Source: a virus (Duplodnaviria; Heunggongvirae; Uroviricota; Caudoviricetes). From it: a stretch of 15,411 nt of DNA. The DNA lies in the IMG/VR virus record IMGVR_UViG_2802429249_000004, positions 1 to 15,411 of that record. One strand, given 5' to 3'. Below are positions 13,425 to 15,411 of this stretch, piece by piece. The notes beneath the pieces were generated by a model that did no database searches, was not told the DNA's origin, and saw only the letters and a program-made list of their open reading frames with translations. The position numbers and the translations under genes are program-made. Each line of letters opens with the position of its first letter. The stretch's first letter is position 1.

Positions 13425-14480
13425 GTGTCTACACAGAAAATTGAAGAAAAATTTACATCTGCACAAGATGCATTAGTAATTCAGCAATCCGATTTATCAT
13501 TAAAGTCACTTTCTGATATGGTTGAATTAGATGCAGTAGATATAAGTCCAAAATATCAGAGAAGGGAGCGTTGGACTGCGGAGAAAGAGTCAAGTTTGAT
13601 TGAATCATTCTTGCTAAACATCCCGGTCCCGCCAATTTATCTCGCAGAGGATAGATATGGAATCTACTCAGTAATAGATGGAAAGCAAAGAATAACGGCT
13701 ATAAATAAATTTTTAACAAATAAAATGAAACTCGTGGAATTAGAAAAATTTCCAGAGTTAGAAGGGTTCTATTTTAAAGACTTACCCCAACCTCTTTCTA
13801 ATGCATTAAGCATCCGACCATATTTAAGAGTGGTCACATTATTGCGCCAATCTGACCCAGACTTAAAGCATGAAGTCTTTCTGAGATTAAATAAAGCAGG
13901 AGTATCTTTAAATTCTCAAGAGATAAGAAATGTTGCTTTTAGAGGGGATTTAAATGATGCTCTTATTGAACTGTCGGATACTCCATTTTTAAAAGAAATG
14001 CTTAAATCAAATAAAAATACTAAAATTTACCAAGAAATGGGAGATGTTCAGTTTGTGTTGAGGTTTTTTACTGTGTTTGATTTGTGGGAAAATTTTCCAG
14101 GTAATATGGATAAAGCTATGGATCTATTTATGGCGAAAAAATCTCGCAGCTCAATTCAAGATGTTAACGAAATGAAGCGGTTATTTTTGCGCTCAATTCA
14201 TTTTTGCGAGACGGTGTGGGGTAATGATGCATACAAAAGAATTGATAACAGTCAACGCGTAATTCAAGGTATGTATGATGTCCAGATGGTTTGCCCTGCC
14301 TTTTTACAACAAAATGAATATGATCATGCCATGGAAAATGCTGCTGATGTAAGACGACTCTTAGTTGATGAACTTTCAAATAATGCGGATTTTCTTGAAT
14401 CAGTGACTCAGTTCACGTCTAACCCAAGAAATATTGCATATAGAATATCACACTTCTGTGACCTTCTGAGAAGAATTTAA
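13425..14480 (+). CDS. DUF262 / ParB-like nuclease-NTPase domain protein (GmrSD-N-like), putative defence component
   Basis: 351 aa. N-terminal region ISPKYQRRERWTAEKESSLIESFLLNIPVPPIYLAEDRYGIYSVIDGKQRITAINKF carries the DUF262 hallmarks (QR..W, LI(E/D)S, DG(K/Q)QR-T). GTG start with AAGGG 7 nt upstream. Strongly AT-rich codon usage. Confidence 0.75.
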   Translation: MSTQKIEEKFTSAQDALVIQQSDLSLKSLSDMVELDAVDISPKYQRRERWTAEKESSLIESFLLNIPVPPIYLAEDRYGIYSVIDGKQRITAINKFLTNKMKLVELEKFPELEGFYFKDLPQPLSNALSIRPYLRVVTLLRQSDPDLKHEVFLRLNKAGVSLNSQEIRNVAFRGDLNDALIELSDTPFLKEMLKSNKNTKIYQEMGDVQFVLRFFTVFDLWENFPGNMDKAMDLFMAKKSRSSIQDVNEMKRLFLRSIHFCETVWGNDAYKRIDNSQRVIQGMYDVQMVCPAFLQQNEYDHAMENAADVRRLLVDELSNNADFLESVTQFTSNPRNIAYRISHFCDLLRRI

Positions 14481-14481
14481 T

Positions 14482-15411
14482 ATGCCTATTCCAGCGAAGG
14501 ACAATTTGCTAAAAAGAATCCTGTCTGTAGATAATGCAACTCAACTACCAGCACTTATCGATAAAGATGTTATGCAGGAACAACACAATATCACAGCTAA
14601 TCTTCTGAGAAAAGGCTTAGGTATAGTAGCATTTAATATTCTGGAAGATTTTATAAAATCCAGAACTATAGAAATGTTTGATTTTATATCTAATGCACGT
14701 GTGAGATTCGAGCAGTTACCCGATTCTTTTAGAATTGCAGCAACAAATGGTGCATTAAGAGGATTAGTATATCAGGCTGGATTAGAAAAGAAAAATAATG
14801 GAGATTGGTTGGCACTAATACATTCTGAGGCCAAAAGTATTTTTTCAACGTCGCAATTTCCTTATACATTATCTCGAGTATCACTTCTTTCAGATGGTTC
14901 TAATGTTGGACATGATGATATACCAGAAGTAATGAAGTGTCTTGATATAACTGGTGGGTGGAAGACATTACAAAAAATATCGAACGATATTGGTGGTGGT
15001 ACATTAGATCTGAATGCTGCTTATAAAAATATGTTTTTCGATAGAAATAGATGTGCTCATGAAGCAGGTTTTAATTATCCATATACCTCTCTCGATAATT
15101 CTTTAAATGACATTGTTACTATTGCTTCTGCATTTGACATAGCGTTAACTACTCGTTGCAGGTATATAGAAAAACAACCTAATTTACCGCTTTCAGCTCA
15201 TAAAGAAAAAGATCCGTTTTCATATCGGTTTTTAATCGCTGATGGAGATGTTTTTCGAGAGAAAAAATCATTAGAACCTGGTGCGAAAACAATAAAAAAA
15301 TGGAGTAATATCTCTGATGCACAATCTAATTTAATTCCTAAGCTAAGACTCCGCGATGAGTTTTTGATTTATATAGGAAAACAGAGAAGGCTTAGTGATT
15401 GGTATTTGTGA
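14482..15411 (+). CDS. Hypothetical protein, operon partner of the DUF262 protein; weak HEPN-like R-x4-H motif
   Basis: 309 aa. ATG lies 1 nt after the upstream TAA, so the two are tightly coupled. Same AT-rich composition. Motif RNRCAH at aa 188-193. Stop TGA falls at the window end. Confidence 0.7.
   Translation: MPIPAKDNLLKRILSVDNATQLPALIDKDVMQEQHNITANLLRKGLGIVAFNILEDFIKSRTIEMFDFISNARVRFEQLPDSFRIAATNGALRGLVYQAGLEKKNNGDWLALIHSEAKSIFSTSQFPYTLSRVSLLSDGSNVGHDDIPEVMKCLDITGGWKTLQKISNDIGGGTLDLNAAYKNMFFDRNRCAHEAGFNYPYTSLDNSLNDIVTIASAFDIALTTRCRYIEKQPNLPLSAHKEKDPFSYRFLIADGDVFREKKSLEPGAKTIKKWSNISDAQSNLIPKLRLRDEFLIYIGKQRRLSDWYL

Follow-up and report, generated by a model that had tools for sequence, protein, structure and literature searches.

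A probable DUF262-HEPN anti-phage gene pair among the distal cargo of a tRNA-Gly island

The stretch of DNA analyzed here, positions 1 to 15,411 of the IMG/VR virus record IMGVR_UViG_2802429249_000004 (the window, 15,411 nucleotides [nt] in full), opens with the gene for a P4-type integrase and closes with two AT-rich genes, A and B, which encode a DUF262/ParB-like protein and a HEPN protein. The locus raises the question of what such a pair does at the far end of an integrative island: does it act against phages, and if so, does it correspond to a system that has been described before? An earlier sequence-only reading of the window had proposed a split sensor-effector defense pair. The domains of the two proteins, the linkage of their genes and the defense-slot context of the locus speak for that proposal, whereas two of its elements, an HNH-like string (GHDDIP) and the novelty of the architecture, did not stand. 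It is probable that A and B form a self-contained cassette of two genes, of the DUF262 plus HEPN type, that acts against phages and belongs to the exchangeable cargo next to attR in a tRNA-Gly island.

The two genes and their products

Gene A (positions 13425 to 14480, plus strand) begins with GTG, ends with TAA and encodes 351 amino acids (aa); the GTG start is supported because the homologues start at the same aligned position. Gene B (14482 to 15411, plus strand) begins with ATG and encodes 309 aa. Its ATG follows the TAA of A after a gap of just 1 nt, through which the two genes are coupled in translation. The GC contents of A and B are 0.348 and 0.340, and GC at third codon positions (GC3) is 0.28 and 0.21, compared with a GC content of 0.468 for the element backbone (2501 to 13100) and GC3 values of about 0.49 to 0.51 in the primase and integrase genes. 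The spacer 5' of A (13139 to 13424) comprises 286 bp of non-coding DNA with a GC content of 0.339. These values bear out the earlier description of two AT-rich open reading frames (ORFs), 1 nt apart (GC 0.35 and 0.34 versus 0.47 in the backbone), behind about 280 bp of AT-rich non-coding DNA. As homology to E. coli sister islands ends at about 13216, the plus-strand segment from 13217 to 13424 (GC 0.346) is a leader specific to the cassette, and presumably it holds the promoter. Neither Rfam families nor tandem repeats were found around the pair, and an RNA antitoxin (type III toxin-antitoxin, as for AbiF) was dropped from consideration for this reason.

Protein A is a ParB-DUF262 plus ParBDB-type, NsnA-like protein and the predicted NTPase/DNA-binding component of the pair (NTP, nucleoside triphosphate). 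It matches Pfam GmrSD_N/DUF262 (PF03235) with an E value of 4.9e-23 and phrog_2598 with 1.3e-64. Its best PADLOC match is NsnA (7.3e-65), with residues 7 to 350 on profile positions 36 to 381 of 385, followed over part of the profile by PD-T4-2_A (3.5e-33, 113 bits). Because the NsnA match covers the full length, A has the ParB-DUF262 plus ParBDB (helical DNA-binding) architecture described for NsnA. All three DUF262 motifs, as defined by Li et al. 2025 (PMC12065111; e.g., QRxxxW), are invariant in A homologues from several phyla: motif I, QRRERW, at aa 45 to 50 (13557 to 13574, plus strand); motif II, DGKQR, at aa 85 to 89 (13677 to 13691, plus strand), the predicted nucleotide-phosphate site; and motif III, FLRLN (FxxxN), at aa 152 to 156 (13878 to 13892, plus strand), in which F152, R154, L155 and N156 are the invariant residues. 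In GmrSD, BrxU and SspE, the DGxQR motif acts in NTP binding and hydrolysis (PMC10952713, PMC12065111).

The sequence-only reading had already pointed out DGKQR at this place and had taken A for a DUF262 protein without DUF1524. Both statements were confirmed, as DUF1524 (PF07510) found no match in A or B at E values up to 1, neither as a fused nor as an adjacent copy. Homologues of A from Gammaproteobacteria, Campylobacterota and Bacteroidota share 59 to 66% identity, and clustering at 50% reduces the whole A family to one full-length representative. The next relatives outside the family (38 to 46% identity) also score best as NsnA-like. A PDB sequence search returned no relatives of A or B, and an NCBIfam search of the pair yielded nothing useful.

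Protein B, the predicted RNase effector, is a HEPN protein of the RiboL-PSP family (PF18735; 1.6e-6, 28.6 bits against a cut-off of 28.4, residues 35 to 222). Other members of the B family reach 29.8 to 37.1 bits on the same profile, and most of the 93 retrieved B homologues carry a precomputed PF18735 match. B has the four-helix up-and-down HEPN fold, and the HEPN proteins listed beside it were the AMPylated HEPN toxin 8xdj, 7ae2, Csx1, Csm6 and the sacsin HEPN domain. The stretch RNRCAH (aa 188 to 193; 15043 to 15060, plus strand), which had been noted as fitting a HEPN pattern, is a genuine Rx4H catalytic motif, given the PF18735 match and the invariance of R188, A192 and H193 in 86 sequences. 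The invariance of the dyad argues for a catalytic role. The first helix, LLRKGLGIVAFNILED, is likewise very conserved among the 86 sequences.

Two further parts of B can be delimited. According to the secondary structure of the model, an insertion at aa 125 to 176 (14854 to 15009, plus strand) interrupts the HEPN bundle; its conserved residues are S131, N141, G158-G159-W160 and G173. The bundle is followed by a C-terminal beta-beta-beta-alpha-beta-beta domain (aa 241 to 309; 15202 to 15408, plus strand), which in cross-locus comparison is usually the most variable part of the protein. The string GHDDIP (aa 143 to 148), once read as loosely HNH-like, is present and is not conserved, so that it does not qualify as a motif. 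An HNH or DUF1524 identity of B was rejected on these grounds and because His-Me and DUF1524 profiles were unmatched.

Linkage, distribution and cargo slot

A homologue of A lies directly 5' of a homologue of B, on the same strand, in all 10 independent contexts in which B homologues were found. The gap between the genes ranges from -1 to 1 nt in nine of them and is 9 nt in the most divergent pair. Besides the present island, these contexts include the gpA/DinI-portal hotspot of P2-like E. coli prophages, as well as an IMG/VR contig where the pair occupies that hotspot. In Pseudomonas aeruginosa, a filamentous prophage of Pf-like type (Zot and DUF2523 genes) has the pair at its end, and in Vibrio harveyi (L010, 4741 to 7055) it forms a single 2.2-kb integron cassette between attC-like repeats of about 140 nt. 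It is part of a restriction-modification (R-M) island in Sulfurimonas, adjoins an N6-methyltransferase gene in Pontibacter and an integrase gene on a second viral contig; the two remaining contexts are Bacteroidota genomes. A methyltransferase gene is adjacent in only two of the 10. Across several phyla, the mobile-element hotspots that carry the pair are of five kinds or more.

Some of these loci show features of their own. On the P2-like IMG/VR contig (L022, 1 to 1391), a further GmrSD_N protein of at least 462 aa adjoins the pair in the portal-proximal hotspot, which thus holds two DUF262 systems side by side. Each of the three P. aeruginosa loci (L005, L006 and L007, 4939 to 6921) has a different chromosomal flank on the right. 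The V. harveyi array consists of small cassettes spaced at about 450 to 500 nt.

As is usual for accessory immune genes, the pair is rare and unevenly distributed. Among 5426 complete E. coli genomes, the P2-hotspot version was present in three and the window version in none. Scans of IMG/VR and of GTDB genomes with two exact peptide patterns detected it at no fewer than two IMG/VR loci and in at least 3 of about 100,000 species representatives; as they depend on these exact patterns, the counts are lower bounds. A tblastn search of GenBank phages with B gave no match.

The island itself is inserted at tRNA-Gly(CCC), as seen on contigs bearing the identical pair. On these contigs, an attR-like imperfect copy of the tRNA 3' end is located about 530 bp past the stop codon of B, outside the window, and no third same-strand gene follows B. 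Therefore, A and B are the last genes before attR, and their assignment to the distal end of the element was correct. Beyond the attR-like copy lie a convergent regulator gene and then yqeJ, yqeG, yqeF, kduI and kduD.

The backbone (5000 to 13100) is 97 to 98% identical in E. coli and is covered to at least 80% in 81 complete genomes. Past the break in sister-island homology at about 13216, the cargo differs from strain to strain. The slot holds an Old-family nuclease in strain EC11 (PADLOC Old, 2e-62; L019, 9405 to 11147), GapS1 in APEC E123 (L026, 2052 to 3650) and a trio of DNA methyltransferase, DUF262 protein and MAE_28990-HEPN protein in PD23 (L027, 4797 to 7895). The distal end thus serves as a slot for the exchange of cargo, with defense genes in it, which agrees with the view of the pair as cargo of an integrative island. 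For a common family of Escherichia islands, a slot for defense cargo next to attR is thereby documented.

Described relatives, proposed function and rival explanations

The closest described system is PD-T4-2 (Vassallo et al. 2022), annotated as "DUF262, HEPN" and validated in E. coli ECOR65 (PMC9519451). PD-T4-2 protects against T4 both natively and when cloned, and its deletion from ECOR65 restores T4 plating (PMC9519451). Its second protein, PD-T4-2B, was assigned to PF18735 with an HHpred probability of 97.8% (PMC9519451, Tables S1 and S3). H127A in PD-T4-2B was among the site-directed constructs, and protection depended on the residues mutated in such tests (PMC9519451). In reviews and in the Menshen study, PD-T4-2 figures among the DUF262 systems without DUF1524 and as still uncharacterized. 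An operon of similar content had been noted earlier by Anantharaman et al. 2013: "Ribo L-PSP-HEPN ... operon with ParB" (PMC3710099).

The genuine PD-T4-2 locus, which 17 complete E. coli genomes contain, was located by means of the lambda-red primer in Table S8 of Vassallo et al. Strain 2009C-3133 (L020, 6001 to 7600) carries it in a P4-like satellite at ssrA, with psu on one side and int on the other. The pair in the window resembles PD-T4-2 in several respects. In both, a DUF262 gene comes first and a gene for a PF18735 HEPN protein with Rx4H second, without DUF1524 or a methylase. Both PF03235 (4.9e-23) and PF18735 (1.6e-6) are matched on the same strand in the window, and the PF18735 cut-off of 28.4 bits is passed by the window B (28.6 bits) as well as by PD-T4-2B (31.4 bits). 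Both pairs are carried as cargo in a satellite- or prophage-type hotspot or island. The first proteins are homologous, with 28% identity over 268 aa (BLASTP, E value of 8e-28).

At the level of families the two pairs part. On the PD-T4-2_A profile, the window A scores 113 bits compared with 538 for the genuine protein (364 aa), which falls short of a family-level match. A representative search with A did not find PD-T4-2A, the best 150 matches all being NsnA-like. PD-T4-2B has only 167 aa compared with the 309 of the window B, which carries in addition the insertion of about 50 aa and the C-terminal alpha/beta domain. Judged by sequence, the pair is a separate, deeply diverged lineage, although its architecture and Pfam families are those of PD-T4-2. 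The earlier suggestion that it may not match a described system holds only in part: the architecture is that of PD-T4-2, and the ParB/HEPN operon was noted in 2013, but the PADLOC models would not call the pair.

Other DUF262 systems were compared in the same manner. Menshen (NsnABC) shares its first protein type, as A gives an end-to-end NsnA profile match, has the ParB-DUF262 plus ParBDB build and contains the three NsnA motifs. However, genes for the NsnB ATPase and the NsnC inPIN nuclease do not follow downstream, the partner being a HEPN protein without a PADLOC match. GmrSD, BrxU and SspE likewise have an N-terminal DUF262 domain with the DGxQR NTP-binding motif and then a helical DNA-binding middle domain. 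They differ from the pair, which lacks DUF1524, in that A ends in an NsnA-like helical domain and the predicted effector is an RNase rather than a DNase. PADLOC v2.0.0 contains models for Dazbog (DzbAB), and these were absent from the PADLOC matches of A and B at E values up to 1. At the sequence level, the pair thus falls outside PD-T4-2 (by B, and by A at family level), Menshen, GmrSD and Dazbog; PD-T4-2 is the closest, though the first protein of the pair is NsnA-like.

Loci combining a methyltransferase, a DUF262 protein and a MAE_28990-HEPN protein (PD-lambda-5-like, 'ParB/HEPN, methyltransferase') are similar in that they join DUF262 to a HEPN family related to PF18735; some B homologues match both PF18735 and MAE_28990. 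The trio in PD23 even occupies the same island slot. These loci are set apart by their methyltransferase and MAE_28990 HEPN, whereas no methyltransferase was detected among the scanned ORFs of the window or the genes called in loci with the identical pair. DARNA/PD-T7-3, ApeA and HepS share with B a HEPN Rx4H RNase domain and a non-catalytic C-terminal domain and are activated on infection. However, they are single proteins that sense through their own C-terminal domain, while B is always co-encoded with a DUF262 protein. In DARNA, binding of single-stranded DNA leads to cleavage of the tRNA anticodon loop (10.64898/2026.02.22.705581). The part of Rousset 2022 drawn on here lists DUF262/HEPN combinations in P2 and P4 hotspots and has no DUF262 system among the tested constructs.

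HEPN domains dimerize, and the RNase site with Rx4H is a composite of the two partners. In GmrSD, BrxU and SspE, DUF262 binds and hydrolyzes NTPs, senses a DNA feature and turns on the attached nuclease (PMC10952713, PMC12065111), and several defense HEPN proteins, such as DARNA, are kept inactive until infection (10.64898/2026.02.22.705581). On our analysis, the role of the pair is probably one of defense, and we infer the following course for it. A single coupled transcript would yield both A and B, and these would assemble into a complex, which, as the conserved translational coupling suggests, could be stoichiometric. A may sense phage DNA, or a phage-induced state of DNA, through its DUF262 and ParBDB domains, and NTP binding or hydrolysis by A would release or activate B. 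Dimerization of B through HEPN would then create the composite Rx4H site, and the activated enzyme could cut tRNA, mRNA or rRNA, either cellular or phage. A stop in translation would block phage multiplication by abortive infection or growth arrest.

Several observations weigh against a defense cassette of this kind. B exceeds the PF18735 cut-off by only 0.2 bits. Compared directly with PD-T4-2B, the window B shows no detectable similarity (BLASTP, E value of 14), and none of the three PD-T4-2_B models in PADLOC matched the window B or its E. coli P2 and Pseudomonas homologues at E values up to 1, while genuine PD-T4-2B scores 213 bits on its own model. Alignment of the two families by hhalign (86 versus 31 sequences) gave 24 columns around N..R[NH]xxAH at 2% probability, the RNRCAH stretch being the only part of B that aligns with the PD-T4-2B family. 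As B is not alignable with PD-T4-2B outside the catalytic helix, function is carried over from PD-T4-2 on the basis of shared fold, motif and architecture rather than of orthology. A promoter scan flagged no sigma-70 consensus promoter on the plus strand of the leader (13217 to 13424). Finally, the pattern of conservation is the reverse of the usual one, in which sensors, expected to evolve under phage pressure, are variable and effectors conserved. Identity was higher for A than for B in all 45 cross-locus comparisons among the 10 loci (means of 61.5% versus 43.5%), so the roles of sensor and effector are perhaps swapped or shared. This suggests either that A reads an invariant feature or that the insertion and C-terminal domain of B join in recognition.

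The same features could belong to a mechanistically separate defense system, in which the pair of about 352-aa DUF262 and about 307-aa HEPN proteins is not a subtype of PD-T4-2; we regard this as possible, though doubtful. In that case, the insertion of the HEPN protein and its fast-evolving, RNase H-like C-terminal domain would contact a variable phage component, and A, with about 61% identity between Bacteroidota and Gammaproteobacteria, could recognize a nucleic-acid feature that does not vary, acting as a DNA clamp or licensing switch driven by NTP. Such a system would have a trigger and a phage range unlike those of PD-T4-2 and would deserve a name and detection models of its own.

An origin of the linkage in addiction rather than immunity appears unlikely. 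Here, B would be a HEPN RNase toxin and A its antitoxin in a toxin-antitoxin-like module that stabilizes mobile elements, with phage defense incidental at most. A, however, is large, very conserved and enzyme-like, with intact NTP-binding motifs, and does not resemble a small labile antitoxin. The gene order, in which a putative regulator of similar size comes first, matches that of PD-T4-2, whose loss sensitizes its native strain to T4, and elsewhere the slot of the island holds dedicated defense genes.

Slightly less likely still is an activity like that of type IV restriction, in which A, or an A-B complex, attacks modified phage DNA and the HEPN protein serves as adaptor, as DNA-binding subunit or as secondary nuclease. 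Modified DNA is indeed sensed by DUF262 in GmrSD, BrxU and SspE (PMC10952713, PMC12065111), and Anantharaman et al. counted ParB/DUF262 among the DNase-type domains in R-M-like systems (PMC3710099). In addition, relatives of the pair are found with methyltransferases, e.g., in PD23 and Pontibacter, and PD-T4-2 acts on T4, a phage with glucosylated hydroxymethylcytosine in its DNA. However, DUF1524, HNH and PD-(D/E)xK nuclease domains were not found in A or B, the invariant Rx4H RNase dyad of B argues for catalysis, and a methyltransferase is absent from the present island and from most contexts.

That A is a housekeeping or partition ParB-like protein standing by chance beside an unrelated gene is highly improbable and effectively refuted by the neighborhood survey: a weak match of the ParB partition profile TIGR00180 (E value of 0.019, far below its cut-off) is set against the conservation of A and B as neighbors, with unrelated flanks, across Gammaproteobacteria, Campylobacterota and Bacteroidota, the lack of the pair in almost all genomes of any species, and surroundings that showed neither parS nor ParA nor a replicon.

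A self-contained DUF262-HEPN defense cassette thus remains the preferred reading. It adds a rare pair, spread over several phyla and not called by the PADLOC v2.0.0 models tested, and would offer a second, very divergent case in which to study the control of a HEPN RNase by a ParB-like NTPase. The gain is incremental, as the architecture and the operon association were both already known.

Other features of the island

The host flank outside the window (yqeG/yqeF; L001, 16304 to 19000) has an identity of only 87.9% to each of the 5419 E. coli genomes that match it. Since this holds for every E. coli genome, the host is another Escherichia species, which accounts for the lack of the pair in the 5426 complete E. 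coli genomes. The difference between this flank and the backbone, 97 to 98% identical to E. coli, implies a recent cross-species transfer of the island.

After the integrase gene, the window contains genes for AntA, a D5/primase-helicase, ProQ/FinO and PerC. A 380-aa ORF with a lipoprotein-like N terminus (LTGC) at 9287 to 10429 has no family match, nor has the 107-aa ORF 3' of it (10495 to 10818). The 512-aa plus-strand ORF at 3325 to 4863 has a Ser/Cys-rich, low-complexity translation and is overlapped by several minus-strand ORFs, and AT skew becomes negative over 3500 to 4500. This ORF looks spurious, and the real genes may lie on the minus strand. Directly 3' of the integrase gene, at 1246 to 2154, there is a 302-aa AT-rich ORF (GC 0.316, GC3 0.23) without Pfam or PADLOC matches, which may mark another cargo slot at the int-proximal end of the island.

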